Made by a program: the position numbers and the translations under genes. Of a DNA stretch of 15,442 bases, positions 453 through 15,442 are shown piece by piece; position 1 is the stretch's first letter; each line of letters opens with the position of its first letter. Source of the stretch: Oligoflexus sp. (GTDB taxonomy: Bacteria; Bdellovibrionota_B; Oligoflexia; Oligoflexales; Oligoflexaceae). The stretch lies in the NCBI GenBank assembly GCA_041736305.1, contig JBGSTX010000175.1, forward strand, positions 1-15,442, in the 5' to 3' direction. The notes below the pieces were generated by a model. That model was not told the origin of the DNA and did no database searches. It was given only the letters and a program-made list of their open reading frames with translations.

Positions 453-1448
453 ATGAGGAAAAATATGAACAGGTCGCGGAGCAGAATCTATTTTATCGGT
501 CTTTACCTTTGTCTCGCTGCATGTGGAAGTGAAAGCGCCTCGGAAATCAAGACTATTTTTGGCCATTTCGATCTTAAAGTACTCACACGCTCTCAGACTG
601 AGACGAGTTTGCAGCGGAGTGTCGGCGCCATTTTTCTCGCAAGTCTCGACCAAAAAGCTCAAGCGAGCCAGATGATAAAATTCTGCAGCGGCATACAGAT
701 ATCGCCCCGCCACGTCCTGAGCAATGCTCACTGCCTGAAGAAGAAGAGTGAAGATACTTACGTCGACCTATACTTTTCTAAGGACTACGTGGCACTCGAT
801 GGTGAAGAGAAGAAGTATACAGTTGATGATGCAGGTGGCTCCCTTTATCTCCGCTTCCGTGGAGCTACACTCTTGGATCCTGAGACGGCTCATGCACCCA
901 ATCTAAAGCCCCTCTTCGTCAGTTCGACGCTCGACTATGCTATCTTTGAAATTACGGAGCAGGGCTTTGACTCTGAGCATATAGACCTCGCTAGAGCACC
1001 AGAAATTCAGGAGCCCTCTACAGCGGGACTGCTCGCCTACCCCAATGCCATGCCGTTAACTTGGTCGGACTCCTGTCAGATCACGCCTTATCTCAAGGGT
1101 GAGAGCAAGCACGACTGCGATTCTACGGGAGGTTCTTCGGGTGGGCTGCTCTTCGATGCGCTGTCAGGCGCGCCCTTGGCTCTGCACAGACAGGGTGTTT
1201 TCAACAATTCGATACAATTCTATCGCGAGCATGGCAGGAGTGAAGAAGCTGCTGAATTAGCAGCTCGAGAATGCCGCGAGAAGTTCAAGATCGATGAGCA
1301 GAGTCCGGACTTGCCAGCCTGCATAAAGTTTCGGAGTGAGCATTTTGGTTTCAATCGCGCCATTCCTCTGGCCGATATAAGGGCAGATCTAACGAAGGAG
1401 GCGCCAGACCTCGCCCAGTCTCTGAGCACAGCACCATCAGCTGAATGA
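453..1448 (+). CDS. Trypsin-like (S1) serine protease, lipoprotein
   Basis: CSG...VLSNAHC (His), DYAI (Asp), HDCDSTGGSSGG (Ser); lipobox LAAC. Alternative start ATG 465 has GAGG RBS. Confidence 0.88.
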   Translation: MRKNMNRSRSRIYFIGLYLCLAACGSESASEIKTIFGHFDLKVLTRSQTETSLQRSVGAIFLASLDQKAQASQMIKFCSGIQISPRHVLSNAHCLKKKSEDTYVDLYFSKDYVALDGEEKKYTVDDAGGSLYLRFRGATLLDPETAHAPNLKPLFVSSTLDYAIFEITEQGFDSEHIDLARAPEIQEPSTAGLLAYPNAMPLTWSDSCQITPYLKGESKHDCDSTGGSSGGLLFDALSGAPLALHRQGVFNNSIQFYREHGRSEEAAELAARECREKFKIDEQSPDLPACIKFRSEHFGFNRAIPLADIRADLTKEAPDLAQSLSTAPSAE

Positions 1449-1913
1449 GCAATCTAGAAGATCTCGGAAGCGCTGGGTCTTCAAATAGAGAGTTTCGAAG
1501 CGATTTTGAAATTCCTCGGGCTGTGAAAGTTCGCTGAGCGAAAGCGAGAAGCCTTGGCGGGCTTCTTTCGCAACGGCACCAGAGACCATACAGGCTTTAA
1601 CTCTCGCACTATCGGCATGACTGTAGTTTTTCACGTAGGTCTCGACCGCTGTTTGGGTGAGACCTATCGTCGCCTGGAGCTTGCCACCGATTGAAAGCAG
1701 GATATTCACTACGGCATCATCGCCGCGGTAGGCAGCGTTGCGGTTGACGATGCTGCGGCCCATGAGGTTCAGAAATTGATCGACATCGTTTTTCATTTCC
1801 CATCCTAATGCCAGTCCCGCCGACCAATTCTCCTCTTGACTAGCTGCACTAGCTTGCGATCCGAAGCTCAGAGAAGCCCACAAGACTAGACCGATCCTTA
1901 GATTTTTTTTCAT
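1437..1913 (-). CDS. Secreted hypothetical protein
   Basis: ATG 1913 with GAGG upstream; signal peptide MKKNLRIGLVLWASLSFGSQASA; predicted helical mature part with two Cys; 3' end overlaps the protease 3' end by 12 nt. Confidence 0.75.
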   Translation of the reverse strand: MKKNLRIGLVLWASLSFGSQASAASQEENWSAGLALGWEMKNDVDQFLNLMGRSIVNRNAAYRGDDAVVNILLSIGGKLQATIGLTQTAVETYVKNYSHADSARVKACMVSGAVAKEARQGFSLSLSELSQPEEFQNRFETLYLKTQRFRDLLDCSFS

Positions 1914-1980
1914 ACTCCGCCTCATCGTTAATCGTGCAAGAAGTGATTTTATAAGCGAAGGACAGGGCCTTTTCGTGGAT

Positions 1981-2000
1981 ATTGCAGAAGTTTTTGCAAT
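1981..2000. promoter_or_regulatory. Palindromic candidate operator ATTGCA-N8-TGCAAT
   Basis: ATTGCAGAAGTTTTTGCAAT centred between divergent starts at 1913 and 2072. Confidence 0.4.
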
Positions 2001-2071
2001 TCATTCTGGACAAAAAGCGCCGCTCGGAGAAAAATACTTCTATGTCAATGGGTCGAAGGAGAGAGGTGCTC

Positions 2072-3073
2072 ATGATTGAGACAGCTAAATCGCTGCGTCC
2101 ACGCTTGATGGCTAGTTTTGTGAGCCTCATGGTCCTAGGTGCGAGCAGCTCAGCCTGCAAAACCAGCTCGCCTCAAAGCAAGTTAGCGACTATCGAAGCA
2201 AACCCGCCGTTTATAAGCCAGAAATCGGACATTCATATCACCTTTCTCGGCACTTCGACTCTCCTCTTTGACGACGGCGAAACGCGCTGGATCACGGATG
2301 GTTTTTTTACTAGACCTAATCTGAGTAAATTTGGCCAGAGCAGACTTCGCTCTGATGATAAACTCATCGATCGCATCCTCGATCGACTCAAGATCAAAAC
2401 CCTAAGCGCCGTCGTATCATTGCATTCGCATTACGATCATGCGCTTGATGCTCCCCTTTTGGCAAAAAAGACGGAGGCGCTTTTAATAGGCTCAAACTCA
2501 ACGGCGCTACTGGGTCGCGCCTTTGCTTTGCCACAAAGTCAAATCCAGGTGGTAAAAGATGGCGACGAGCTAAACTTCGGCAAGTGGAAAGTCACTCTTA
2601 TTCTTTCAGCACATAGCCCCAACCCCAAAGTCGCCGGTGAAATAGACAAGCCCCCTGTACTGCCTCTGACAGAGAATGATTACAAGCCTGGGGAATCTTT
2701 CTCGCTCCTCGTCGAGCACAGTGGTCGCTCACTCCTCTTGCAAGCTAGCGCAGGCTTTGTTCCAGGAAAGCTCCAAGGTCGCAAGGCGGATGCCGCATAT
2801 ATTGCGATCGACACCTTGGACAAGCAGGACGAGACTTACCGTAATGATTATTGGCGAGAAACAGTCGAAATAGTCGGAGCCAAGCGGGCTTTTGTTGTGC
2901 ATTGGGATGATACGAATAAGAGTCTCGAAGATCCTCTGGTGCCAGCTGTGGCACCCCCAGAGGAATTCGATAAACTCATGAAGTGGCTGAAGAACAAGGC
3001 TAAAGCCACAAATGTGGACATCCAACTCCCTCAGGCTTTTAAGGTCACCCTACCGTTTCCGGAAGCCAAGTGA
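2072..3073 (+). CDS. Metallo-beta-lactamase-fold hydrolase (UlaG-like), probable lipoprotein
   Basis: ITFLGTSTLL..DG...ITDGFFTRP, HSHYDH (HxHxDH), later H and VHWDD; GAGAGG RBS before ATG 2072 (preferred over TTG 1982); SSAC lipobox-like. Confidence 0.88.
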   Translation: MIETAKSLRPRLMASFVSLMVLGASSSACKTSSPQSKLATIEANPPFISQKSDIHITFLGTSTLLFDDGETRWITDGFFTRPNLSKFGQSRLRSDDKLIDRILDRLKIKTLSAVVSLHSHYDHALDAPLLAKKTEALLIGSNSTALLGRAFALPQSQIQVVKDGDELNFGKWKVTLILSAHSPNPKVAGEIDKPPVLPLTENDYKPGESFSLLVEHSGRSLLLQASAGFVPGKLQGRKADAAYIAIDTLDKQDETYRNDYWRETVEIVGAKRAFVVHWDDTNKSLEDPLVPAVAPPEEFDKLMKWLKNKAKATNVDIQLPQAFKVTLPFPEAK

Positions 3074-3083
3074 GCTAAAAATC

Positions 3084-4838
3084 TCAATCGATCGAGCAGC
3101 AGAGTAGCGCACTCGCTTTACCATCCCTCTGGGCGAGTCCTGCGACGTACTCGTGATCGGCACATTGCCCTTTGCGGGATCCGGAGGCGAAGTCACCTCC
3201 TTTCACCGATCCTCTGCCGTCTTCTCTATCGAACCAGCGGGTCGTACAGCTGCTGCTGAGTGGCCGCTGGGCTGGACTGCAGAGGATACCGCTGCTTCCC
3301 CAGTAGTGCTTGCTAAATCCAAGGACCATTTGCTGAGGTGGGCACTCGTACTTGGTGAATCCGGAGGCCCAATCTCCCTGAGCGAGTGAACTGCTTTCGC
3401 TGACAGCAACGACAGTGAGAGGCGCGGGTTTAAGGAGCTCAGCAGAGGCTTCGTCAGTGCATAGAGCGCGATGGTCCTGACTCATCCCGGCCAAACGCAT
3501 GGTATCGGGACAAGTTCCCTTATTGGCTCCAAGCAACCAATCTTCCCTAAAACTGTTTTGCTGGTCGTTGCCCCGACGAATATCCAGCTGGGAATAGTGC
3601 ACTTCGCGCGGTGTGCCTTCAAAACCCTTGGCGGCCATCAGGCGTTTCATCTCTGGAATTCTCCAATCATCGTCCAGCGTCTTCGACCAGTCGGCAGACA
3701 CCAGCCCGTAGGACTCATGATTCAAGGGCCAGTAAGCAAAATCGAGGTCTTTATCGATCATATAAGTGATGAGATCGCGAAACCAAGCCTTATCGAGCTC
3801 GCTCGCGTTATCGCGAGCGGCCCCAAACTCGCTGACCCAGACCGGGGCCGTATAGAATTGGCCAGGCTCGCTGACAAATCCCCATTCCTTATCCAGAGTT
3901 TGGCGAAGCGCTTCAGTTCCCAGTTCGCTGTAAAGTGGACCCTTGGATACACTGGCATTGCCGTTGTGCTCGGGACCGATATGCGTGTAGTTGTGGGCAG
4001 CATAGACGAGCTTATTATTGCCGGGAAGATGTACCGGACGATCGCGAACGGGCATGAGGTGGGGCCGACTCCCGGAACCGAGCAGAGGTATAGTACCCCA
4101 CCAGTTGATGCCTTCAACGACGATAAGAATATCTGGGTTGACGGCGAGAATCTTGCGACCTAAGTCTTCAGCAGCCTTATGCCAGTCATTCTGATCTCCC
4201 CTGCCCCAGTTAGGTATTTGGGGAAGAATCGTATCGCCTAACTTGCCGGTGCGAACTTCGTTCCGTAGATCAGCAGCAACGACAGCCTTATTATTTTTGT
4301 AACGCTCGATCAGCATCAGCCAGTCATTCTCCCACTGACTGAGATTTTGATCCATTTTGTCAGGAGAGCCACTGTGGATCCAAAGGCCATTGGCGTCGTA
4401 ACCGCAGCACCATTCCGAATAGGTCGAATGGTTGTTTAAGAAGACCACAATACCTGCCGCGGTCAAAGCCTCGACGGTCGCATCGAACACCTGGAGTGGA
4501 CTGAGATTTTGCAGCTGCGGATTTGCTCGGACAGCATCCGCCGAAACGGGTTGGGTCGTGCGGAGCATAGTGTTGGAAAAAGGCAGTCGAACAGCATTGA
4601 ACCCGAAATCTTTGATCAAATTTACGATATGCGCGAGAGATTGTTGGTCCAGCCCCCCTACAATCTCCCCTACCAAATGAGCCCCGTACCAGTTGACGGC
4701 TTGGACTTTGAATCGTTGCCCATCACGGTCGACAATATATCGACCATCTGTACTTAAGGGAAATCGTTCGCTTGCAGCCGCCGAACTAGCTAGGGCCAGC
4801 AAGCTCCCTAAGACGATTCCTACCCATAATTTCAGCAT
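3084..4838 (-). CDS. Secreted glycoside hydrolase family 5 (cellulase superfamily) with C-terminal Cys-rich triple repeat
   Basis: VNWYG, GFNAVRLPFS, DLRNEVR (acid/base Glu), AHNY, VWVSEFG (nucleophile Glu), FAYW; GAGGGAG RBS before ATG 4838; signal peptide MLKLWVGIVLGSLLALASSAAA. Confidence 0.92.
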   Translation of the reverse strand: MLKLWVGIVLGSLLALASSAAASERFPLSTDGRYIVDRDGQRFKVQAVNWYGAHLVGEIVGGLDQQSLAHIVNLIKDFGFNAVRLPFSNTMLRTTQPVSADAVRANPQLQNLSPLQVFDATVEALTAAGIVVFLNNHSTYSEWCCGYDANGLWIHSGSPDKMDQNLSQWENDWLMLIERYKNNKAVVAADLRNEVRTGKLGDTILPQIPNWGRGDQNDWHKAAEDLGRKILAVNPDILIVVEGINWWGTIPLLGSGSRPHLMPVRDRPVHLPGNNKLVYAAHNYTHIGPEHNGNASVSKGPLYSELGTEALRQTLDKEWGFVSEPGQFYTAPVWVSEFGAARDNASELDKAWFRDLITYMIDKDLDFAYWPLNHESYGLVSADWSKTLDDDWRIPEMKRLMAAKGFEGTPREVHYSQLDIRRGNDQQNSFREDWLLGANKGTCPDTMRLAGMSQDHRALCTDEASAELLKPAPLTVVAVSESSSLAQGDWASGFTKYECPPQQMVLGFSKHYWGSSGILCSPAQRPLSSSCTTRWFDREDGRGSVKGGDFASGSRKGQCADHEYVAGLAQRDGKASALLCCSID

Positions 4839-5007
4839 GCTGAGCTCTCCCTCAATCGAAAATAGATAAGTGGAATCTCCTCTTAACATCCATTTTTGTA
4901 AAGGCCAAGTCTGTTCGGATTTTTGAAATTGCGGGAGGGATAGGGGTTTGCGACTGCTTCCAACGCAGGCTGGTCAAGCGTGGAAGCCGTCTTACTTTTA
5001 TCGAATC

Positions 5008-6189
5008 TCAGTATCGCCTCGAGCGGGAATCGATGAAAGCCTGAGGATTTTCATAGAAGGCAAGAGCATCTTTCATCAGGCGAAGACGGATACTATCCGG
5101 TTCATTGTAGATCTCATGCCGCGAATTTTCATGGACGTAATAGCGGCAGCTAAAGACTCTTTTGCAGAATTTTTCAATTGCATTCAGCTCGACCCACTTA
5201 TCAAGGTCTTTGCCACCTGCAGCTATTGCTACTGGAACCTTTACGGCATCCAAGTTTGCTAGCTCGGTGGTCTCAGCGCTCAACTTCAAGAGCTGGCGAC
5301 CTTGCGCATTGGTAGAACCACAGCGGTAGCGTCCTGATTCGAGACCGCTGATCTTTCGTCCAGCATCATAGCGAGCCCTGGAAGTATGATCGGCCTTTTC
5401 GAAAGTCAGATCTTCTATAGGGACTTCTTTATTTGTGGGCACATAGTCATTGGGTTTCAGGGCCGCCGCCCCTTCCAGAATAATTTTTGCTACTTGGGTC
5501 GGGAAAGGCTCGCTTTTCGCCTGATGCATAGGCGAATTCATGAACGCGGCATCAACCCCGTCAGGATATTCTTGGAGGAAGCGCGAGCAGATACCGCCTC
5601 CCATTGAATGGCAATAAAGATAAGTCTTTCGACCGGGGGTCTTTACGCGGTCTACAAATACCTTTAAATCCTTGATATAACGCTCTCTGTCATCGACATG
5701 AACTTTGCAGTATCTCGGATCCTTATAGTAGGATTTGCCGTTTCTCTTGATGGAGAGCCCTTCGCATTGATTGGCTCGCATGCTCTTGTTTTCTTCTGCA
5801 CTGAAGAGCAGATGATCCGAGCAACCATGACCTACATGGGAATAGGAGTGAACAGCATAACCATTATTCCAGAAGTTGTAGAGCAGCTCGGAAAACGCTC
5901 GGTAATCTTGACCAAACCCGTGGACAGCTATGATGTTCGCTTTCGCCGAGCTATTGTCGATACTTATCGATTCGAGCTGGGCTCCTCCAGTTGCTGTGAA
6001 ATACGATTTAGGTGCCTTCTCCATAAAGGGCAGGATAGAATCCGACCACTCCTGTTCAAAGTTCGCATCTAAAATAAGCTTTGGTTCCTGCTTCGGCGCC
6101 GGCGATTCTGCGAGCGACTCGCTCCCGTCCTGCGTGCTTTTACATGAGATCAGACTCCAGACAAGAAATACAGCTGTTGCTAGTTTCAT
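5008..6189 (-). CDS. Alpha/beta hydrolase, lysophospholipase L2 (PldB)/Hydrolase_4-like lipoprotein
   Basis: VHGF oxyanion motif, GHG.S, CHSMGG nucleophile elbow, D..V, HEIYNE catalytic His; lipobox LISC; GAGG RBS before ATG 6189. Confidence 0.88.
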   Translation of the reverse strand: MKLATAVFLVWSLISCKSTQDGSESLAESPAPKQEPKLILDANFEQEWSDSILPFMEKAPKSYFTATGGAQLESISIDNSSAKANIIAVHGFGQDYRAFSELLYNFWNNGYAVHSYSHVGHGCSDHLLFSAEENKSMRANQCEGLSIKRNGKSYYKDPRYCKVHVDDRERYIKDLKVFVDRVKTPGRKTYLYCHSMGGGICSRFLQEYPDGVDAAFMNSPMHQAKSEPFPTQVAKIILEGAAALKPNDYVPTNKEVPIEDLTFEKADHTSRARYDAGRKISGLESGRYRCGSTNAQGRQLLKLSAETTELANLDAVKVPVAIAAGGKDLDKWVELNAIEKFCKRVFSCRYYVHENSRHEIYNEPDSIRLRLMKDALAFYENPQAFIDSRSRRY

Positions 6190-6470
6190 TCGTTCCTCAT
6201 AGATGGCAAGCTTTACCATCCAGTTTATATGTGCTGATACAGCCTCGGAAGAATTAATAACTGTTCAAAATATGTCCAAAGCACTTAAAAGTGACTTTCT
6301 TGGCAACTTGCGCTGAGTCCTGTTTGATTTCGCGCCTCCCCCCGTCCTCTAAAGCTGCAAAATTTCATGTTTTAAGCAATTATATTATAGACATAGAGTC
6401 GATTGGCCAGGACATCAGCACTGCCTGTACTCTATGCAGTCTATGCGGCTGTAAACACAAGCGATTGCAT

Positions 6471-6487
6471 CTGGTTTACCTCTTGCA
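6471..6487 (+). promoter_or_regulatory. Putative sigma54 (-24/-12) promoter
   Basis: CTGGTTTACCTCTTGCA: GG-N10-GC with TTGCA at -12, ~95 nt upstream of 6580. Confidence 0.45.
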
Positions 6488-6579
6488 AAGGATGCTTCTA
6501 GTTAGGCCGTCGCAGCACAAAGTATTCTTCGCTCTTCAAGGCGAAATCTGCTTTTACGAAAGAAACACAGGAGTTGCTA

Positions 6580-7125
6580 GTGACTCGTTCATACGTCGTA
6601 ACATTCAGCTTTCTGGCTTTTGCTTTGGCATGCAGCGGCGAAAAATCGACGTTCAATGCAGGAACGCCAACTGTAACAACTGCGCCTCGCACTAGCGATG
6701 CTACTAGCGGTGTTGATGAACTAAGCTCGGCGAAAACTCCCGCCGAAGCTGCTCCGCCAGCGCCGGCGCCAATTGCCGCGCCAGCCAACGCCATCAAGAA
6801 AGGTAGTTTCTTGGTATTCACGGTGCCTGCTGATCCATTACCGTTCAAGCCTTACGATATCTATATTACGGTCGACTTGAGTTCGGCTGAAGACCTCGGA
6901 AGTTATACGAAGGGCGACTTGTCCGGCACCATAACGGGCACTGATGGTTTCATGTATAACCTTGGCAGTAATATCGATGGCATTGAATCATTCTCATTCA
7001 ACTCGGATAAGGTGCAAGCGGTTTTGCAGGTCACCATCCCAGGCGCCGTCAACAATACCAAAGATTCTATCAAGGTCAACTCGACCTTGCTTAATGAATC
7101 CCAAGTTATTGAGTTAGTCTTCTAA
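6580..7125 (+). CDS. Hypothetical lipoprotein with Pro/Ala/Thr linker and beta-rich (Ig-like?) C-terminal domain
   Basis: AGGAG RBS 6 nt before GTG 6580; lipobox ALAC; linker TPAEAAPPAPAPIAAPA; followed by terminator. Confidence 0.8.
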   Translation: MTRSYVVTFSFLAFALACSGEKSTFNAGTPTVTTAPRTSDATSGVDELSSAKTPAEAAPPAPAPIAAPANAIKKGSFLVFTVPADPLPFKPYDIYITVDLSSAEDLGSYTKGDLSGTITGTDGFMYNLGSNIDGIESFSFNSDKVQAVLQVTIPGAVNNTKDSIKVNSTLLNESQVIELVF

Positions 7126-7151
7126 AAGAGAAGCTAGCTTCTCAGGACCAG

Positions 7152-7181
7152 AGGCTTCGGGTAGATCCGGAGCTTTTTTTT
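7152..7181 (+). terminator. Rho-independent terminator
   Basis: Stem AGGCTTCGGG / TCCGGAGCTT, loop TAGA, followed by T-run, just after stop 7125. Confidence 0.8.
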
Positions 7182-7207
7182 GCCATTTTTCTTCTTATTG
7201 CAGCCTC

Positions 7208-7236
7208 TTGCAGTCCTCCCCCTCCTGCCTTATAAT
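7208..7236 (+). promoter_or_regulatory. Putative sigma70 promoter
   Basis: TTGCAG (7208-7213), 17-nt spacer, perfect TATAAT (7231-7236), 45 nt before ATG 7281. Confidence 0.65.
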
Positions 7237-7280
7237 AAGCTCTTATCGCTGTCGACCCAACCACTTGCGAAAGGCAGCTT

Positions 7281-7883
7281 ATGAAGCTCTGGCGCCCCCT
7301 GCTGCTGATTTTGAGCCTATTCTCTCTTCAATGTAAATCAACGCGGAATCGCAATATTATTGACCTTGAAGCCGAGCCGCAATCAGCCGAAGCGGACGGT
7401 CCGCTGGGATGGGGCACGTCCTGCGCAGCCTGTCTCTGCACCCTCGCGACGAACCCTGAAGCTGTATCGTACAAGCCTCAGAAAGGTACCCCTCAGCAAG
7501 AGTTCAATGAGAAGCACAGCTGGTGCGAACGAAATTGGGCCTGCAATGGTGTCGAGTATCTCACCTTCCAGCCCGATATGCAGGAGCAGTGCGCCAGCAA
7601 TCCAATTCTCATGCGTTGGAAGAAAGTCAGTGGCAAAGCTGTCTGCGTCTACGAATACAGTTTTTTCGGGGGCGCTGAACAGTGCTACAGCGAGGGCGAT
7701 ATTCCGGATCTCGGCGAGATTTGGAACGACCGCATTTCATCTCTCAGACTCTTTGGCGATGTGCAGGTAGAATACTGGGAGAATGCGCAGTATCAGGGCA
7801 ATGGCCGCAAGACTACAAGCAGCTGGATACCTCGCCTAGAAGATGCGCTAGAAGATCACATATCTTCCCTACGCATCAAGTAG
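7281..7883 (+). CDS. Lipoprotein with Cys-rich N-domain and C-terminal beta/gamma-crystallin domain
   Basis: Two Greek-key motifs VYEYSFFGG...WNDRISSLRL and YWENAQYQG...EDHISSLRI; signal ending SLQC. Confidence 0.82.
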   Translation: MKLWRPLLLILSLFSLQCKSTRNRNIIDLEAEPQSAEADGPLGWGTSCAACLCTLATNPEAVSYKPQKGTPQQEFNEKHSWCERNWACNGVEYLTFQPDMQEQCASNPILMRWKKVSGKAVCVYEYSFFGGAEQCYSEGDIPDLGEIWNDRISSLRLFGDVQVEYWENAQYQGNGRKTTSSWIPRLEDALEDHISSLRIK

Positions 7884-7896
7884 GGGCCCATGGAGA

Positions 7897-7917
7897 AGGC
7901 TCCGTTTCCCGGAGCCT
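7897..7917. terminator. Hairpin between convergent genes (possible bidirectional terminator)
   Basis: AGGCTCCG-TTTCC-CGGAGCCT perfect 8-bp stem; no clear U-tract. Confidence 0.5.
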
Positions 7918-7932
7918 CCCCTGTGCCATCGA

Positions 7933-8931
7933 TTAGTTTGCTGGATTATAGTTGATAGAAAGACTGGCTGAATCTTTGACGAGGTCGGTCTTGATCAGAG
8001 TCACAGAATTTTTCTGAGCATCATAAGTCCAGTCGCTAGCGGCGAGTAAAGTTCCTCCAATTCGCACGTTCATAGCTTTCGGATCCTTTGGCTTTTTGGT
8101 CAAGGTAAAAGTCACGCTTCGCTTAACCATATCGGTCGAGAGGCGGGTAATCAAGTTTGACCAATCGGGAGCGCATAGATCCAAGGACGTACCACCTGAG
8201 GTAGCCGCTAGATTGATGTACTCAGTGCCAATGTTAGCTAAATCACAGGTATCGTTGACTAGTGAGTTTGGTAGCCCGAGTATACCGTTGAAAGTCGCTT
8301 TCAAGGTTTTAGTCGGGTCAAAATCCGCAGCTAGATTGCCTTCGCCAGACCCATTATCATCCGTGATTACTACGATCTCCAGTTTTGCATCTTTCCGAAA
8401 AGCTATAGGAGCTGCGAGTGGTGCATTCTGCACCGAGAAGTAAAACGCTGCGAATTGCCCAGCAAAAAGGCTGGTCAATCGGCTGATAGCGTCACCCGAG
8501 TCAACCCTTTGCCGTACAAACGCTACTTTGTTCGGATCTGTAGTGGCAGGCAGGACTAGGTTTTGATCCAGCATCAAGTGGATGCGGGGGTCCAACTTAC
8601 CATCAGTTAGTGTGCTGATCAGTTTGGGCAGGTTGTTCTGGGTACTAAGAAGTTCGTCGTCCATACTCGCGCTAGTATCAATAGCGAAGACAACGTCGAC
8701 TTTTAGTGAGATCAAATGCTTATCGGTAATGCTTCCAAGATCCTCGACCTGCGAAACTTGGACTGGAGCAGCAGGCGCTGAATCTCCAGAATCGACCTGA
8801 CTCGTCACGGGTTCAGCCGGAAGCTGGACCAGCTTCTCGGGTTCAGGAGGTGCAACTCCTTTGAAGGCTGACTGGTTACAGCCAATGAGATAGGCCGCAC
8901 CTATACATAAGAAATAGATTCTCGCTTTCAT
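7933..8931 (-). CDS. von Willebrand factor A domain lipoprotein
   Basis: DVVFAIDTSASM (MIDAS DxSxS), IVVITDD, Y..LA..SGG; lipobox LIGC; Pro-rich linker; small C-terminal beta domain (WTYDAQKNSVT); GAGGAG RBS. Confidence 0.88.
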   Translation of the reverse strand: MKARIYFLCIGAAYLIGCNQSAFKGVAPPEPEKLVQLPAEPVTSQVDSGDSAPAAPVQVSQVEDLGSITDKHLISLKVDVVFAIDTSASMDDELLSTQNNLPKLISTLTDGKLDPRIHLMLDQNLVLPATTDPNKVAFVRQRVDSGDAISRLTSLFAGQFAAFYFSVQNAPLAAPIAFRKDAKLEIVVITDDNGSGEGNLAADFDPTKTLKATFNGILGLPNSLVNDTCDLANIGTEYINLAATSGGTSLDLCAPDWSNLITRLSTDMVKRSVTFTLTKKPKDPKAMNVRIGGTLLAASDWTYDAQKNSVTLIKTDLVKDSASLSINYNPAN

Positions 8932-9080: not shown

Positions 9081-9097
9081 TTGGCACTTTCTATGCT
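9081..9097 (+). promoter_or_regulatory. Putative sigma54 promoter for the CheX-domain gene
   Basis: TTGGCACTTTCTATGCT: TGGCAC -24 box with exact GG-N10-GC spacing. Confidence 0.65.
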
Positions 9098-9218
9098 TAG
9101 GGGCCGGACACCGACTTTATTTTAGACAGCCCGTCACAAAGCTTAGACACTCTAATTTGACTTCAGATATAGCCAAGGTCTGTTAGAATGAGAGGGATCA
9201 AAGAGGGCAAGTAATTTC

Positions 9219-10691
9219 ATGAGCACACACTATATAATCTTGCTCCGTCCAAGCCCTAGCCTGGTTAAGACGGTTGAGGAATCGCTAAAAAAGCTTGAAG
9301 GGATCAAAGAGATCAAGGTGAACCTTGAGATCGCGAAATCCGCACCTGAAATGGCCAAGCTCATAGATCAAGGCCGGCGTTTTGAAGCCATCCTAGCAGA
9401 GCATCCTATCGAGGCTATCGATGTCAACTTTATCCTCACCCTCTATCGTCCCCTGAAGAGAAAACCGCCTCTGCTCGTCTCTAAGGAAAACTACGAAAAG
9501 TTAGCGAACCGCATTATCAATACCGACCTGACGCCGGCCATCAAAGGCTTCAGTAGGGAATTCATTTATGACTACCTCAGCGAAACCTTGCTCATCAGCG
9601 AGAAGAAGATCGACAACCGTATCATCAAAGAGGTGCTGACCTCAGCGACCTCCATTATATTTTCCAATACCCAGTTGAAAATGGATGTGGCGGCTCTCAG
9701 CGAAGTCTCTGCTAAGGGCTCTCAACAGGAAATGACTTCCGTCATCGCCTTCATCGGAGACGGGTTGCTCGGTAATCTCAGCTTTGCCACCACCAATAGA
9801 CTCATCAGCCTTTTTTGCCAGAAAATGCTCTATTGTGAAGCGAGCGATGTAACGCCTGCGATGTGTACTGATGTTCTGATGGAGCTATCCAATCAAATTT
9901 TGGGTGCGACCAGACTCCAGCTCGCACAAAGCGGCTATGAGCTGGGGTCTTCCTTACAGCTCGTGGTCTCGGGAGAGCAGCCGCATCTTTACCTTGCGAA
10001 GAGCAGTGGCCACTATTATCGCATCAAACTCAAGCACGGCGAGGACGATTTCCACATTACCTTTGCCTACGGTACCTATCCGAAGCAAAAGGGCGAAGCG
10101 AATTTCTATGGGAGTAAGCTGAGCAATCTCACGCTCGACGTTCGCATTGTTAACGGCCTCGTGAAAGCAGCTAACGAAGTTTTGACTATAGGTGGAGACC
10201 GACCTAAAAAGCAGGGCGTAGGCGAGCATAGAGGTGAGGACTACCAGGCCGACTCGCTGCATATCTTACATGGTCGGGGCCACCAAGGCAGCTTCATACT
10301 CGCTCTCGAAATTCCTTTTGCGACGATCAAGGCTTATATAAAAGAAACTTTGGGTCTAGAGACCGAAGGATTGACTCCAGCGATGATCACGCAGGTCGGC
10401 GGCGAACTTGTAAACAGCCTGGGGGCCGCGTTTCGTGAAAGCTCTCAGAAGCATGGCTACGGCTATATCTCGGTCTTCAGCGGCGGCTTCTGCGCATCCC
10501 GCAAGCTCAGCTATCTGCTGAAAAATCAGGGACTCTACTGCCGCCTGAACTTTGCCGTTCGCGATCTACCTTTCACTGTTTGCTTTGGCATGGAGGCAGC
10601 GGCTTCCCCGAAGATTTTTGACCTTTGGAACTATATCAAAAGTCTGGCCCAGGCCGTCAAGCCGCAAAAGAATTCACCGGCTCCTGGCTAA
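9219..10691 (+). CDS. Chemotaxis phosphatase CheX-family protein: degenerate receiver-like domain + two CheX domains
   Basis: CheX-1: IDNRII...TSVIAFIGD..GNL...DVLMELSNQILG; CheX-2: LDVRIVN...QVGGELVNSLGA (ExxN at 222/225 and 396/399); N-terminal ~125 aa has receiver-like beta/alpha pattern. Confidence 0.8.
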   Translation: MSTHYIILLRPSPSLVKTVEESLKKLEGIKEIKVNLEIAKSAPEMAKLIDQGRRFEAILAEHPIEAIDVNFILTLYRPLKRKPPLLVSKENYEKLANRIINTDLTPAIKGFSREFIYDYLSETLLISEKKIDNRIIKEVLTSATSIIFSNTQLKMDVAALSEVSAKGSQQEMTSVIAFIGDGLLGNLSFATTNRLISLFCQKMLYCEASDVTPAMCTDVLMELSNQILGATRLQLAQSGYELGSSLQLVVSGEQPHLYLAKSSGHYYRIKLKHGEDDFHITFAYGTYPKQKGEANFYGSKLSNLTLDVRIVNGLVKAANEVLTIGGDRPKKQGVGEHRGEDYQADSLHILHGRGHQGSFILALEIPFATIKAYIKETLGLETEGLTPAMITQVGGELVNSLGAAFRESSQKHGYGYISVFSGGFCASRKLSYLLKNQGLYCRLNFAVRDLPFTVCFGMEAAASPKIFDLWNYIKSLAQAVKPQKNSPAPG

Positions 10692-10718
10692 AAACAAGAG
10701 CTCCTAGATTTCGGCGCC

Positions 10719-11879
10719 TTAGGCAGCCGCGGTCTTTTTCTGCAGCATTTTTTTGGCTTCTGCCAGGTAGGGATGGACTTTATCATAGTCCGCAGGAGCA
10801 TTGGCAGCGCAAGCTTTGAAAAAGCTCAGGGCCTTCTGCCAGTTCTGGAGACGGCGAGCATGCAGCCCCATATTCATCCAAACTTTATACGAGTCAGGCT
10901 GCTCCCCTAGCACCTGCTGTGACCTCTGCAGAATCTTCTCAGCTTCTCCCACCTTATTGGCTCTGGCGAGATCGAGAGCATAGCTTTGAACCAAACGTGT
11001 GACTTGGAGCTGCCCACTCCCGAGCATACTCCGTACTGAATCAGCTCGATTGAGCAGCGCTTCGGCCACCAGTTTACCGGCAAGAGCCGCGCTTTGATGG
11101 GGATCAGAATTCAGGCTTTCCTCGAAGAGACTCAAGCCAAGCTCTATCTTGCCTTCTTGCACCGCCCAACGCGCTTTGAGACTCAGGAAGGGCGGATAAC
11201 CAGGCGCCAGACTCAAACTTTTATCTATAACCTCTCGGGCCTTGTCGATTTGAGAATTTTCCGTATAAGCGACCGCAAGAGTCAGCCGGGCATCCAGAGA
11301 GCGACTGTTCTCCCTGACCGCACTCGCACAGCTGAGGATCGCATTAGGATAGTCCTTCATTTCTAGGTGGAGCTTGGCTTTGAGCAGAGTCGCACGAAAA
11401 GGCTCGCTATCCTGCTTGGCGTAGGTCTCAAGAAGAGGCCCCACTTTATCGAATTGCTTTTGCTGCATATTGAGGCTGATACGTTCTCTCAGATCCATCA
11501 GATGACGGCGCTTGCGGGAGAAGAGTACCAGCTTTTTGAGACTAGGAATAAAATCCAAGCTTTGCAATGGCGCTACGCAAGGCAGAATGTATTCGAGATC
11601 AAAGCAAAGGGCTCGATGATAGGTATCGAGGCCAGGCAGAAGGAGGATGATAGGAAGAAAAGTGTTGCTACGACCTTCGCGAATCGCCCGAGCTTCCTGG
11701 ATCGCGGCAAGCGCGTCGCCTGAATTTTCTATGACGACCCCTTCCAGCGTTTTGATTTCCGCCAGCTGCTCGAGTATCGTGATGCGCTGCCATGCAATAT
11801 CTAAGCCTTCGAAAGCACCGAATTCCCGGGCGGCTTCGACGAGCTCTTCAGTTTGGCAGTAAAGTGCGATCGTCCCCAT
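10719..11879 (-). CDS. Degenerate receiver-like domain + tetratricopeptide repeat protein
   Basis: TPR-like helical pairs (LKAKLHLEMKDYPNAI, ARLTLAVAYTENSQIDKAREVIDKSLSLAP, VWMNMGLHARRLQNWQKALSFFKAC); N-terminus GVVIE...IRE....FLPIILL like REC beta3/beta4. Confidence 0.8.
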   Translation of the reverse strand: MGTIALYCQTEELVEAAREFGAFEGLDIAWQRITILEQLAEIKTLEGVVIENSGDALAAIQEARAIREGRSNTFLPIILLLPGLDTYHRALCFDLEYILPCVAPLQSLDFIPSLKKLVLFSRKRRHLMDLRERISLNMQQKQFDKVGPLLETYAKQDSEPFRATLLKAKLHLEMKDYPNAILSCASAVRENSRSLDARLTLAVAYTENSQIDKAREVIDKSLSLAPGYPPFLSLKARWAVQEGKIELGLSLFEESLNSDPHQSAALAGKLVAEALLNRADSVRSMLGSGQLQVTRLVQSYALDLARANKVGEAEKILQRSQQVLGEQPDSYKVWMNMGLHARRLQNWQKALSFFKACAANAPADYDKVHPYLAEAKKMLQKKTAAA

Positions 11880-11908
11880 GTACCCACACGTGTAATTAGC
11901 TTATGGGT

Positions 11909-11935
11909 CTATCGGCATTCCCAATCAATACTTGA
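11909..11935 (-). promoter_or_regulatory. Putative sigma28 (FliA) promoter for the TPR gene
   Basis: Minus strand TCAA-GTATTGATTGGGAAT(15)-GCCGATAG versus consensus TAAA-N15-GCCGATAA; 30 nt upstream of ATG 11879. Confidence 0.7.
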
Positions 11936-12073
11936 TTACCATTTCAGCGCCTCTTCCGTGCACTAGCTTTTTCACGGCTACCCCGACTTTGGTCGAAACC
12001 AAAAATATCCCTATTTTTCATGGCAAGCTGGGAGGGATCCATATTTTAGGAACGCCAGATGAAGATTAAAAAC

Positions 12074-12100
12074 TCAACAAGCCTGAATCCCAACCGAAAA
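12074..12100 (+). promoter_or_regulatory. Putative sigma28 (FliA) promoter for the MCP-flagellin unit
   Basis: TCAA-N15-ACCGAAAA with exact spacing, ~40 nt before ATG 12142. Confidence 0.5.
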
Positions 12101-12141
12101 GCTAAGCGGAATTTCTATGTCTTTGCGTGGGAGTCGCAGCT

Positions 12142-14004
12142 ATGGAACGCAGCCGCTATGTCGGGGGACTACTCTGGGTGATGAGCTTAGGCCTCATCCT
12201 CTTGGCCAGTCTAGCAACAGTGTTCGATACCCCTGAGTTTACCCATAAGAGTGAACTGGGAAAGGTTCAAGAGTCTTTAGCCGCGATGAGCGAAAGCCAG
12301 AGCGGCCCTCATGCGGATGAGCTTACGGCGCTCCACAACACCCTCGCACTACTGCGCAGCGACTCTCAGCTGATAGACGAACGACTCATTCTCGTCTGGT
12401 CTATGCTCTCCCTTATGAGCTTCGGTCTCGCCTCAGTGCTCGTCATGGGGCTGGGCGAAGTGCCGCTGCCCTTTATTCGCCCCCGCAGCAGCCGCCGACG
12501 CAAGCAGGAATTAATTGAAGATTTCAGCGGTCCCCTCGAAGAAACTCTAGAGCAACTCCAGCGGGTGAGTCTTGAACTGAGTCAGCTCAGTCAAGTTTCC
12601 TTAAAAGGCGAACCAGCTCGAAGTCCCGAAATGCTAGCCAATCGCTTCGACGAACTACTCAGAATACAGGGTCGTCTAAGCGGCTTGCAAAGGGAACTCG
12701 GCTTCACGCTGTCGACTCTCAAGGAAGTCGCAGAACATCTGCAATCACTCTCGCGCCAATGCGAAGAGAACGCGCAATTCACCGCTGCCACAAGGCTCGA
12801 ATGGAGTTCGATGGGTAGCAAACTCCGCATGCTGCGCGATCAGCACAACAAGGTCAAAAGCACGGCAGAGAAAGTCAGTAAGCAGCAGCTTTCGCTCTGC
12901 GAGATGATCGGCAAATCTCTTGAATATGGCAACGTTCAAGACAAGCATGCAACGGGAGCCCGTGAGCATATCCACAAGATGAACGAAATCTCGCGCAGCA
13001 CGCTCTCGACTCTCGATCTTCTGGCCGGTTCTATGGCTGAATCCAACCAGGACGTCGGTGCCGCCAGCGCCCTAGTGCGTGGACTTTCTGAGCGAGCCGA
13101 GGAAATAGTCAATATCATAGATGTGATCGACGACATCGCCGAGCAGACCAACCAACTAGCGCTCAATGCGTCGATCGAAGCCGCCCGGGCCGGCGAGCAA
13201 GGGCAGGGTTTCGCAGTAGTTGCCGGCGAGGTTCGAAACCTGGCAGCGCGTTCTTCGACGGCAACCAAGTCCATCACCGATCTTCTTGGTACGATACAGC
13301 AAGAAGCCGATCATGCTTCCAGCTGCCTCGAAAAAACCAGCAAATCTGTGGGGCTTGCTCATACGAAGACTCTCGAGGTAGATCGTTCCTATAGAGAAGG
13401 AGTACACCTAGCTCGTCAAGCTATGAACGGACTCCAGCTGCTTATAGCCAATGCTGCCGAGCAGACGGCCGAACTGAAGGCGGTTGAAAGACAGGCGCAC
13501 GACCTCAAGAAATACAACAGAAACGTCTTGGCTCAGCTCGAAGAGCAGGGTCGCATCAGTACGTCGGCCTGCGGCGACAGCACCTCGCTCATGCAGCACT
13601 CCGATAGACTGTCACGTTTATTGAGCCGCCAATACTTTGAGATTACCCACTGCGATAGCATGGTCGACGCCAGCATACAGAATCTGCGTGGGATCAAGGA
13701 AGGCATGGAGGATAGTGTGGCACAAAGCGAGAGTCTCCGAGGCGCAGTGCAGCAGCTTTATATCCAGAGTCTGCATATCGTGCCACAGACGGAAGGTGGT
13801 GACAGCAAACTTACCCGGGCTGTGGCTACCTTACAGGCTTGTAGCAAAAACCTTGAGATTATCAAGGCCAGCCCGGAGCGGGCCCGAGGCGAAATGGAAG
13901 CCATGTACAAAAATATTATTCCCTTAGCTACTGCCGATGGAGCACCCCTGCACGACCTCAATATCGAAGAGCTCAACAAGTCTTCGGAAGCGAAAGCGGG
14001 ATAG
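12142..14004 (+). CDS. Methyl-accepting chemotaxis protein (two TM, short periplasmic loop, long cytoplasmic coiled coil)
   Basis: Signalling hairpin [47 protein letters not shown]; two hydrophobic segments; GGGAG RBS 8 nt before ATG 12142 (alternative GTG 12127). Confidence 0.92.
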
Positions 14005-14005
14005 C

Positions 14006-14932
14006 ATGACCTTTATCCTCAATGATAAAGCCATGTCTGCCAAGCTCAATAATGCATTGGACAAGTCACGTCGCCAAAACAGCGACAGCCTTTCCAAGCT
14101 GAGCTCGGGCCAGGTCTTTACCGCCGAGGATCCTCGTCCTGCCGACCGCGCTTTAGCGGAAGGACTCGAACATAAGCTGCGTGGACTCGCCGCCTCGAAG
14201 CGCAATATCAACGATGGTATATCGCTGCTCCAGACTGCGGAATCGGGTTTCTCTGAAATCAGCAATATGCTCATTCGTATGAAGGAAATCAACACCGCTG
14301 CGGCCTCATCAACTCTGAGTAATCAAGACCGAAAGTTTCTCTTCATCGAGTATCAGGCACTCCACGAAGAAGTCGACCGCATAGCAGCAACTACCGAATT
14401 CAATAAGATTCCGCTGCTCGATGGCAGTAACGAGAAAGTACCCGAGGAGCTCGTCTTGAGAATCGGTGATGCAGCTCGCAGCACCGATGGCGATGGAAGC
14501 GATCTCAATACCTTGCGTTTCCAAGATCTGAAGAAAGTAATAGCGACAACGACGGGGCTCGGGCTCAAACCTGTCGCCGATCTCCTGGCGGAAGCCGAGG
14601 AAGGCATCGATCGCGAGGATGCACAGGAATTGCTTGAGGCTGAAGACAGCCGCTATGGAACGGTCTACGATGAGGCTCTCGATAAATTGAGCGGATATCG
14701 GGCCATGTATGGCGCTATGCAGACCCGTTTAGCCAAAGCTATAGACTACAACGAAGTGGTCTCAGAAAACATTTCAGCGGCTCGATCGAAGATCGCTGAC
14801 GTCGACTATGCCGATGAAGTGGCAAAGCTCACGCAAAGCAATATTCTTATGCAGACAGCCACGGCCCTGATGACACAAAACAATCTCGCCGCGGGCATTG
14901 GCGTGCAGATGATCCAATCTCTCCTCAGCTAA
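14006..14932 (+). CDS. Flagellin-family protein (divergent, 308 aa)
   Basis: KLSSG, RNINDGISLLQTAE, LIRMKE, EVDRIAATTEFN; C-terminal RAMYGAMQTRL, ENISAARSKIADVDYADE...NILMQ; ATG 14006 matches the usual flagellin N-terminal length and lies 1 nt after the MCP stop. Confidence 0.9.
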   Translation: MTFILNDKAMSAKLNNALDKSRRQNSDSLSKLSSGQVFTAEDPRPADRALAEGLEHKLRGLAASKRNINDGISLLQTAESGFSEISNMLIRMKEINTAAASSTLSNQDRKFLFIEYQALHEEVDRIAATTEFNKIPLLDGSNEKVPEELVLRIGDAARSTDGDGSDLNTLRFQDLKKVIATTTGLGLKPVADLLAEAEEGIDREDAQELLEAEDSRYGTVYDEALDKLSGYRAMYGAMQTRLAKAIDYNEVVSENISAARSKIADVDYADEVAKLTQSNILMQTATALMTQNNLAAGIGVQMIQSLLS

Positions 14933-15019
14933 GTCTTCTCCCGAATGAAAACTCTGGCATTTTCTGTTCCCTGCTTTAAAATCTAATCTGGATCAACGCC
15001 ATAGCGATCGGGGTCGATA

Positions 15020-15442
15020 GTGGTAAGCAAATTCTGGCCGGGATTGCGCAGCGATAATAAGGAAAGTACCAAAAATAAAGCTAAGAGTGTTAGCAAAAGC
15101 AAGCCAAGCGACGAGGATCTCAAGCGGCCTAAAGTCAAGGAAAGCCGCAGCGGCAGCCGCTATTTACTCGGCGAACTCATCGACACTGAATTCTTGCTTG
15201 ATGAACCCTATGGTCCTATCCAATTCATTTGTGATATCGACAAAACTTATATTGAGACGAAGTTTGACAGTGCGATGTCGATGCTGAAGATAGCCTTCGA
15301 GCAAGCTAATGAGAAAGTTACGGTTACGGGTGCCCCTGTCGCACTTCTTGCCGGGCGTTGGGGCGACGTGTTTGCGAAGCAGGACGCCACATCCAAAGCA
15401 CCTAGGCCCTTGCATTTTCTCTCCGCCTCACCACCACAGCTA
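15020..15442 (+). CDS. App1/DUF2183-like HAD-superfamily phosphatase domain protein, partial (runs off right edge; not in ORF track)
   Basis: Open frame from GTG 15020 (start uncertain): ...PIQFICDIDKTYIETKF...AFEQANEKVTVTGA...RPLHFLSASPPQL; DxDxT motif I and hydrophobic strand + SAS motif II; Lys/Ser-rich N-tail. Confidence 0.75.
   Translation, partial: MVSKFWPGLRSDNKESTKNKAKSVSKSKPSDEDLKRPKVKESRSGSRYLLGELIDTEFLLDEPYGPIQFICDIDKTYIETKFDSAMSMLKIAFEQANEKVTVTGAPVALLAGRWGDVFAKQDATSKAPRPLHFLSASPPQL

Follow-up and report, generated by a model that had tools for sequence, protein, structure and literature searches.

Five adjacent genes in a contig of an Oligoflexus genome encode unusual variants of flagellar and chemosensory proteins, and the question raised by this locus is whether they constitute one dedicated module or more than one gene set. 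The genes, designated here as A to E, occupy the right half of contig JBGSTX010000175.1 of Oligoflexus sp. (assembly GCA_041736305.1; order Oligoflexales, class Oligoflexia). The window analyzed in this work is this entire contig of 15,442 bp, one of the 392 contigs of a genome with a completeness of 92.7% and a contamination of 2.7%. An initial annotation of the window had reported five adjacent genes of mostly atypical motility and signalling types, with no cheA, cheW, cheY, cheR or cheB gene in the window, and had proposed that they serve as a single module, possibly one that connects a chemosensory array with the state of filament assembly or the lifestyle phase. We found all five genes in place; domain, motif and structural model evidence confirmed the assignments of A to D and, in part, that of E, and the Pfam scan of 14 window open reading frames (ORFs) likewise detected none of the CheA, CheW, CheY, CheR and CheB families. 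Matches to the CheW domain occur elsewhere in the genome, with 13 of them distributed over six other contigs. The nearest named relatives are proteins of Oligoflexus tunisiensis, at 58% identity for A and 45% for C. The most probable answer is that the locus combines two separately conserved Oligoflexia gene sets, A-B and C-D, which are adjacent only in one sub-lineage of Oligoflexus and which would have the roles of a phosphatase and of a coupled operon, respectively.

Gene A (positions 9219-10691, plus strand) encodes a protein of 490 amino acids (aa), in which a degenerate receiver-like domain is followed by two CheX domains. This architecture had been read from the sequence in the initial annotation, and the fold model, the Foldseek search and the internal duplication all agree with it. 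Pfam finds only one CheX domain (PF13690, residues 172-259, 36.1 bits against a cut-off of 27), and the same family is matched by 15 of 15 A homologues. The AlphaFold model, obtained with a 15-sequence alignment (predicted local distance difference test, pLDDT, 84.7; predicted template modelling score, pTM, 0.74), has a (beta-alpha)5 fold in residues 1-124, followed by two alpha/beta domains of CheX type that span 133-286 and 308-460. The top Foldseek matches are solved CheX- and CheC-like proteins (3H2D, 3IIC, 3H4Y, 6VPW, 3HM4 and 1SQU/1XKO), and the CheX-CheY3 complex 3HZH as well as 1XKR and 4HYN are also among the matches; the E-value is 2.5e-10 and the template modelling scores to the target range from 0.77 to 0.89 (3H2D 0.87, 6VPW 0.89 and 1XKO 0.80). 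The two CheX halves of A align with each other over 97 residues at 29% identity (E-value 7e-7), with TDVLMELSN of the first opposite TQVGGELVN of the second and the ExxN motifs in register.

The catalytic motif of CheX and CheC proteins reads D/S-x3-E-x2-N. In A, the first CheX domain carries D218-VLM-E222-LS-N225 and the second one E396-LV-N399. E222 is present in every one of the 15 homologues (24-100% identity), and at least 90% of them retain D218, E396 and N399. When the A family profile was compared with the sequences in PDB, the first domain aligned with 3IIC and the Shewanella CheC-like proteins (E-value 5e-21, ExxN in register) and the second one with CheX of Thermotoga maritima (1XKO, E-value 2e-4). 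The catalytic motif of A aligns with those of solved Shewanella and Vibrio proteins. Weak matches to the Pfam family DUF3334 were observed in 7 of 15 homologues (best E-value 6e-4), and these may mark a link between DUF3334 and CheX-like domains. A second CheX-domain gene on another contig of this genome (G000, C165:28213-29250; 345 aa with CheX at residues 46-123) adjoins a gene for an outer-membrane efflux protein and lies apart from any che cluster seen.

Gene B (10719-11879, minus strand) is convergent with A and encodes a protein of 386 aa, with a degenerate receiver-like domain followed by an array of tetratricopeptide repeats (TPR). Pfam matches TPR families in B, and the AlphaFold model (pLDDT 86) consists of a (beta-alpha)5 domain at residues 2-123 and TPR helices at 125-385, both in line with the pseudo-receiver-TPR architecture suggested earlier; Foldseek returned generic TPR proteins only. 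The receiver family PF00072 has no match in the N-terminal domain of any of the 15 A members at E-values up to 1, nor is it among the 25 of 49 matched families listed for 10 B members. In the alignments of homologues, the N-terminal acidic pair and the phospho-acceptor Asp are not conserved in the N-terminal domains of A and B: the acceptor position holds Glu, Asn, Gln, Ala or Thr in most homologues, and Asp in only three homologues of A. Of the receiver features, the models retain the (beta-alpha)5 topology alone. The label of pseudo-receiver is thus a structural call, because no PF00072 match is shown and the acceptor Asp is not conserved.

A and B co-occur strictly and probably constitute a two-protein unit. 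Among the 101 genomes of the class that were sampled first, about ten places have full-length relatives of A, and B adjoins A in nine of the nine loci examined. A profile search of a second sample, which comprised 131 genomes from across the phylum, identified A in 18 genomes, all from one order but from several of its families, and four of these genomes have two copies. B is adjacent to A in 20 of the resulting 22 loci. One of the two loci with no neighbouring B stops at a contig edge and the other is fragmentary, with no B found. Full-length matches to a B profile at E-values below 1e-60 were found only in genomes that hold A, while the remaining matches form a tail of generic receiver-TPR paralogues (1e-30 to 1e-49) with many members per genome. 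The orientation of the two genes is variable, being either convergent or with B preceding A on one strand, and their other neighbours change entirely between loci, often including signalling genes. For instance, a genuine receiver gene with the DD...D...T...K residues lies between B and A in five genomes and upstream of B in one more; other A-B loci have a gene for an Hpt and HATPase protein upstream of B, or CheA-like and hybrid kinase genes nearby.

The A-B pair is further predicted to be a heterodimer. The modelling of protein pairs that the initial annotation had recommended was run for A and B, and it gave an interface score (ipSAE, interaction prediction score from aligned errors) of 0.78 (0.79, 0.78 and 0.78 in the individual runs), compared with 0.01 for the best control. 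In the benchmark, the same mark is reached by 116 of 157 solved complexes and by 2 of 215 mismatched pairs. At least 97% of the contacts are common to the runs, and the partner has a pLDDT of at least 85. In the predicted interface, helices alpha1 (residues 12-25) and alpha5 (104-112) of B face residues 308-315, 331 and 464-475 of A, at its second CheX domain. From the domain content and the retained motifs we infer that A-B is likely a scaffolded double-site phosphatase for CheY-like single-domain response regulators. In this scheme alpha1 and alpha5 of B would dock on the second CheX domain of A, the pair would strip phosphate from CheY-like single-domain regulators, and the TPR array of B would provide localisation or partner binding. 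No match to CheZ or CheC was obtained with Pfam in this genome, at its completeness of 92.7%. When the receiver that lies between B and A elsewhere was searched for here, the best match was weak, at 25% identity, and provides no candidate for the substrate.

Gene D (14006-14932, plus strand) encodes a divergent flagellin of 308 aa, referred to here as D-type, and is a class-wide, single-copy and fast-evolving flagellin paralogue. It matches both flagellin domains (Flagellin_N, PF00669, at 82.4-85 bits with a cut-off of 26.6; Flagellin_C, PF00700, at 56.4 bits with a cut-off of 23) and reaches none of the NCBIfam flagellin equivalog cut-offs, the best score being 144.5 bits against 443. A 331-aa ORF from position 13937 is an upstream extension of D, and the flagellin models begin at its residue 24. 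Altogether the genome has eight Flagellin_N matches, namely six canonical flagellins at 128-146 bits, D at 85 and FlgL at 64. A search with D retrieves one match per flagellated genome of the order at 41-68% identity (E-values 1e-77 to 1e-134), and the other flagellins of those genomes follow at 32-41% (about 1e-40 to 1e-47). D-type proteins occur in 47 of the 49 order-sample genomes that have any flagellin match, and exactly one D match at an E-value of 1e-52 or lower was found in each of 96 of the 131 genomes of the phylum sample.

In a quick IQ-TREE phylogeny of 34 D-type proteins and 25 paralogues, the latter taken from the order only, the split between the two groups received a support of 100 in the Shimodaira-Hasegawa-like approximate likelihood ratio test, and D-type branches are longer than paralogue branches between the same genomes. 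The D-type proteins have no canonical N-terminal MGLRIxTN motif and carry VFTxxDPRPA where the paralogues have RINKSADDAAG, but they keep the C-terminal flagellin block. A D-type peptide pattern searched against 185,579 species yielded 63 loci. Nearly all of them are labelled as Oligoflexus, Oligoflexales, Oligoflexia, Pseudobacteriovorax, Silvanigrellales, Silvanigrellaceae or Bdellovibrionota, or broadly as Proteobacteria or 'bacterium'; in three cases the label given by the submitter is odd (two Polynucleobacter and one Zetaproteobacteria). A local 'DP..A' motif had suggested an FlgL-like junction protein, a candidate that was rejected: D scores 48 bits with TIGR02550, for which the cut-off is 127.2, a separate FlgK-FlgL pair is encoded on another contig of the genome, and the median score against that FlgL is 28.9 bits for D-type proteins versus 46.0 for the paralogues.

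Upstream of D lies gene C (12142-14004, plus strand), which encodes a methyl-accepting chemotaxis protein (MCP) of 620 aa when counted from its likely start, ATG 12142, which is preceded by GGGAG; the ORF itself opens at GTG 12127. C has an MCP signalling domain (PF00015, 122.7 bits against a cut-off of 34.6), and a simple hydropathy scan predicts two membrane helices with about 55 aa of periplasmic loop between them. In C and eight positional orthologues, PF00015 was the only family detected at E-values up to 0.01, with no HAMP and no ligand-binding domain. The first description of C and D as an MCP and a divergent flagellin is borne out by this domain and by the low flagellin scores of D. 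Within the order, the MCPs that partner D have two membrane helices joined by about 50-60 aa of loop. One other family has a longer loop, of about 115 aa, and the MCPs of a Silvanigrellaceae-type family have no membrane helix. In three of the three annotated loci of the latter family (L099, L101 and L106), a gene for a protein with MshEN, a c-di-GMP-binding module, lies directly upstream of the soluble MCP gene on the same strand, giving the row MshEN-MCP-flagellin.

The MCP-D arrangement was followed in two overlapping sets of loci, the first drawn from 62 genomes (three of its loci end too early to tell) and the second consisting of 63 named loci with flanks of 2.5 kb. Of the 59 assessable loci of the first set, 55 have an MCP gene immediately before D in the same orientation, the other four being those of G032, G030, G064 and G014. 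The 55 include each of the 15 loci examined in two families of other orders. In the second set, it was found in 44 of the 57 assessable loci, with 13 lacking it and six not assessable; the 13 belong mostly to more divergent freshwater lineages of Oligoflexales. The junction itself is tight. The ATG of D follows the stop codon of C by 1 nucleotide (nt). Across about 40 genomes of the order, the inferred start of D is offset from the stop of the MCP gene by -16 to +18 nt, mostly by -1 to +3. This offset varies by no more than a few nucleotides between families whose proteins are 33-50% identical, while all other neighbours change. Many D orthologues start with TTG or GTG, and a GGAG, GAGG or AGGA core precedes the D start by 4-18 nt in 15 of 25 loci, falling inside the last MCP codons where the genes abut. 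In one case, the 825-aa protein P0104 from a 3.77-Mb contig, an MCP and a D-type flagellin are fused in a single natural ORF. No other fusion was found among 32 longer flagellin relatives, and this one, a singleton cluster, may be real or a frameshift artefact. A second apparent in-frame fusion, a 608-aa frame in G094, was rejected, as that frame is open by chance in a different phase and the MCP stops 1 nt before D.

The -35/-10 consensus of sigma28 promoters resembles TAAA/TCAAG-N14-15-GCCGATAA. B and C-D are divergent from one 260-nt region that contains two sigma28-like sites, each facing its own gene: TCAAGT-N14-GCCGATA for B (11910-11935, minus strand) and TCAAC-N14-ACCGAAA for C-D (12074-12099, plus strand), both identified as pattern matches. 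The pattern TCAAS-N14-RCCGAWA, derived after these two sites had been seen, has three matches in the window versus 0.04 expected, and 59 strict matches genome-wide with these three included. The third window match, TCAAC-N14-ACCGAAA at 14309-14334 on the plus strand, is inside D, about 690 nt upstream of E, and could be a chance occurrence or a promoter of E located within D. As recognized by motif, the sigma28-like promoters of B and of C are conserved. The CCGATA -10 element upstream of B is kept in seven of seven sub-lineage loci as well as in L025, a locus from another family, and a TCAAG/TAAAG-N13-15-GCCGAT site about 45-60 nt before the MCP start can be read by eye in most of 11 loci of the same genus. 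No conserved sigma28 -10 element was found just upstream of D, including inside the 3' end of C, whereas in the MCP-less loci D has its own sigma28-like site (TAAA-N15-CGATAA-like). A generic scan performed at chance level and was not used (5 promoter-like elements versus 4.4 expected; 7 terminator-like elements versus 6.7).

A sigma54-like site with the GG-N10-GC element, TGGCAC-N5-ATGCT at 9082-9097 on the plus strand, lies 122 nt upstream of the start of A. Its pattern has one window match versus 0.04 expected, and 8 of 200 shuffles reach one match. Both RpoN and FliA (288.8 bits against a cut-off of 189.6) are encoded in the genome. However, the four closest relatives examined (L019, L089, L090 and L091) have no equivalent of the sigma54-like site upstream of A. 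Of the sigma54-then-sigma28 hierarchy envisaged in the initial annotation, a known order of many polar flagellar regulons, only half is supported, by the conserved sigma28-like sites.

These features suggest that C-D is likely a late flagellar operon in which the amount of a minor flagellin is linked to that of a receptor. A sigma28-type promoter would drive C-D, translation of D would be coupled to that of C, and D would be made in step with the receptor as a low-dose specialised subunit of the filament. At least B, judging from its promoter motif, would be expressed with the late flagellar genes in this lineage.

Gene E (15020-15442, plus strand) is the 5' part of an APP1-type haloacid dehalogenase (HAD) phosphatase-like gene, interrupted by the contig end. 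Its fragment of 141 aa has the DIDKT (DxDxT) motif and no Pfam hit, and full-length orthologues match APP1_cat (PF09949) at 42.1 bits (365 aa) and 46.6 bits, with a cut-off of 27.1. E is a frequent neighbour of D with conserved synteny, located within 1.5 kb of D in 20 of 29 loci of the order and within 2.5 kb in 40 of the 57 assessable named loci (12 on the same strand and 28 convergent). It was not found near D in any of the 15 loci from other orders. In three loci of the same genus that are without A-B (L092, L095 and L098), a gene for a PAS-HisKA-HATPase-receiver(-Hpt) hybrid kinase is divergent from the MCP-flagellin operon, and two of these have a GH30 glycosidase gene between D and E.

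The two gene sets meet in few genomes. A-B is beside C-D-E in the window and in G090, G119, G121, G122 and G125, with the arrangement in G123 split by contig ends, and the named Oligoflexus records L160-L163 have B beside C-D. In five other genomes of the same genus, C-D-E is present with no adjoining A-B, and hybrid kinase or other genes are found upstream instead. In G083, G098, G074, G020 and G091-G093, A-B is on other contigs or hundreds of kilobases from C-D-E. Other genera have A-B at a different genomic site. Co-occurrence across genera thus supports the initial proposal of a dedicated module for A-B and for MCP-D, taken separately, but not for the five genes together. In a locus from another order, a gene for a 387-aa protein with a genuine receiver and TPR (L109:51-1214, minus strand) is divergent from the MCP-flagellin pair, mirroring the position of B. 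It was considered as a trace of an ancient link between B and C-D (G003; hhalign probability 99.4) and discarded, being a generic receiver-TPR paralogue that is not among the true B matches.

Several observations weigh against the assignment of A-B as a phosphatase and of C-D as a coupled operon. In A, N225 is replaced in 2 of 15 homologues and kept in 13. The window itself contains no receiver gene. The predicted A-B interface does not include the catalytic helix of the second CheX domain and is therefore uninformative on substrate binding; moreover, because CheX-receiver complexes have already been solved, part of the A-B score could be a memory of those structures. On the C-D side, D has no upstream MCP in 13 of 57 and 4 of 59 loci, and the coupling is therefore dispensable in some lineages. 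The Shine-Dalgarno sequence before D is weak in the window, and the orthology of the soluble MCPs in the Silvanigrellaceae-type family (f15) is based on position and a conserved tip region only. Finally, Oligoflexus tunisiensis was described as non-motile, with no flagella seen (PMC4179278). Yet in the record of its type strain Shr3 (L161) the genes for B, the MCP, the D-type flagellin and E form the same row, and A is matched by a protein that bears the name of this species; flagellation may be conditional. A single flagellum is reported for an FD111-like predator from Oligoflexales (PMC12865303).

Among the alternatives, the most tenable one is still unlikely. It holds that the adjacency of MCP and flagellin genes reflects inherited order in the sigma28 regulon and nothing else, and that A binds receivers as a sink or scaffold in the manner of FliM, with no phosphatase activity. 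In well-studied bacteria, MCP genes as well as flagellin genes belong to the late sigma28 class, and the CheC/CheX fold is also found in the non-catalytic middle domain of FliM, which is among the Foldseek matches. An inherited order does not readily account for a junction that persists within a few nucleotides in such diverged families with changing neighbours, and the Glu and Asn of both CheX domains, retained in nearly all homologues, would be needless for a mere scaffold.

A second alternative, which we consider quite improbable, is that D serves as a cytoplasmic partner or ligand of a sensor-less MCP, in addition to or instead of being a filament subunit, with the receptor reporting the state of export or assembly. 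Such a role would suit the paired MCPs, which have no recognisable ligand-binding domain and are either soluble or built of two helices with a loop of 50-115 aa, and it would suit the stop-start junctions, which are typical of proteins made in a fixed ratio. The natural fusion P0104, the altered N-terminal and 'DDAAG' motifs of D and its faster evolution than that of canonical flagellins are in accord with it as well. Yet P0104 comes from one contig, stands alone among 32 longer relatives and may result from a frameshift or an error of sequencing; the C-terminal blocks to be expected in a polymerising, exportable flagellin are retained in D; and some lineages have D and no MCP. In its strongest form, that C takes the co-transcribed D as its input and the array monitors the cytoplasmic pool of an export substrate, the idea is a long shot. 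If it were true, chemotaxis-type signalling would receive feedback from the flagellar type III export apparatus throughout Oligoflexia, and the array would sense whether the filament is under construction or complete. The weakest alternative is the original one of all five genes as one dedicated working module, which we regard as scarcely credible: the window and six other genomes share the order and orientation of the genes despite 35-70% protein identity, and B and C-D diverge from a common region with two conserved sigma28-like sites, but the phyletic pattern largely refutes it, since A-B and C-D-E are never adjacent outside the sub-lineage in the loci examined, five genomes of the genus have C-D-E without A-B, the seven genomes from G083 to G093 listed above have A-B elsewhere, and A is present in 18 of 131 genomes compared with 96 of 131 for D.

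Under the preferred reading of two gene sets, all parts of the locus come from known families, and the two arrangements appear to be undescribed: we found no earlier description of the MCP-flagellin pair or of the tandem CheX protein with a TPR partner in the open-access literature. The CheX proteins of Thermotoga maritima and Borrelia burgdorferi (1XKO, 3HZH), which are phosphatases of CheY-P, and the stand-alone CheX-family proteins of Shewanella and Vibrio (3H2D, 3IIC, 6VPW) have the same fold and the same Glu-x2-Asn motif as A. CheX has one domain and acts as a homodimer, whereas A has two complete CheX domains per chain, a degenerate receiver-like domain at its N-terminus and an obligate partner gene that encodes TPR. 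The Vibrio homologue VC0377 is itself described as uncharacterised (PMC8789113). CheC/FliY belongs to the same superfamily and shares with A the two catalytic ExxN sites per polypeptide, but in CheC these are within one pseudo-symmetric domain and in A in two separate CheX-type domains. The Rap phosphatases of Bacillus are TPR proteins that act on the receiver Spo0F (PMC3035606). Their likeness to A-B is one of role, a TPR protein working on or with receiver-fold proteins, and no homology is claimed; the TPR protein Rap is itself described as the phosphatase, whereas here the catalytic motifs are in A, and B combines a receiver-like domain with TPR. The tandem CheX protein with a degenerate receiver domain and an obligate partner would extend the known ways of ending CheY-type signals.

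For E, the closest known system is the phosphatidate phosphatase family of yeast App1 (PF09949), the catalytic model of which is matched by an E orthologue, with DxDxT present in E; E differs as a bacterial member that is conserved beside a flagellin gene, often in convergent orientation. For D, filaments with several flagellins including a specialised minor one are represented by FlaA/FlaB of Shewanella, FlaB of Helicobacter and the flagellin sets of Caulobacter and Bdellovibrio. As in these systems, the genomes studied here have several paralogues, one of them (D) distinct and conserved; unlike in these systems, D is joined stop-to-start to an MCP gene, with the sigma28-type promoter upstream of the MCP. 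Campylobacter FlaC is a secreted flagellin homologue and not a filament subunit. Like FlaC, D is a short and divergent homologue of flagellin whose gene lies away from those of the main flagellins, but D has full-length N- and C-terminal flagellin domains. An MCP-dedicated flagellin pair across most of the class offers a testable case for the tying of filament composition to receptor production, and it also allows one to ask whether a receptor can read a flagellar export substrate. The motility and chemosensing of Oligoflexia are of practical interest because the class includes the FD111-like bacteria, which are flagellated and prey on cultivated microalgae (PMC12865303).

The left half of the window (453-8931) encodes secreted-type hydrolases and surface-type proteins. 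Its products include a trypsin-like peptidase, a metallo-beta-lactamase-fold protein, a GH5 cellulase of 601 aa and an alpha/beta hydrolase, as well as a beta/gamma-crystallin-like or I36-inhibitor-like protein and a lipoprotein-like protein of 332 aa with a faint likeness to adhesins with a VWA domain and metal ion-dependent adhesion site (MIDAS).

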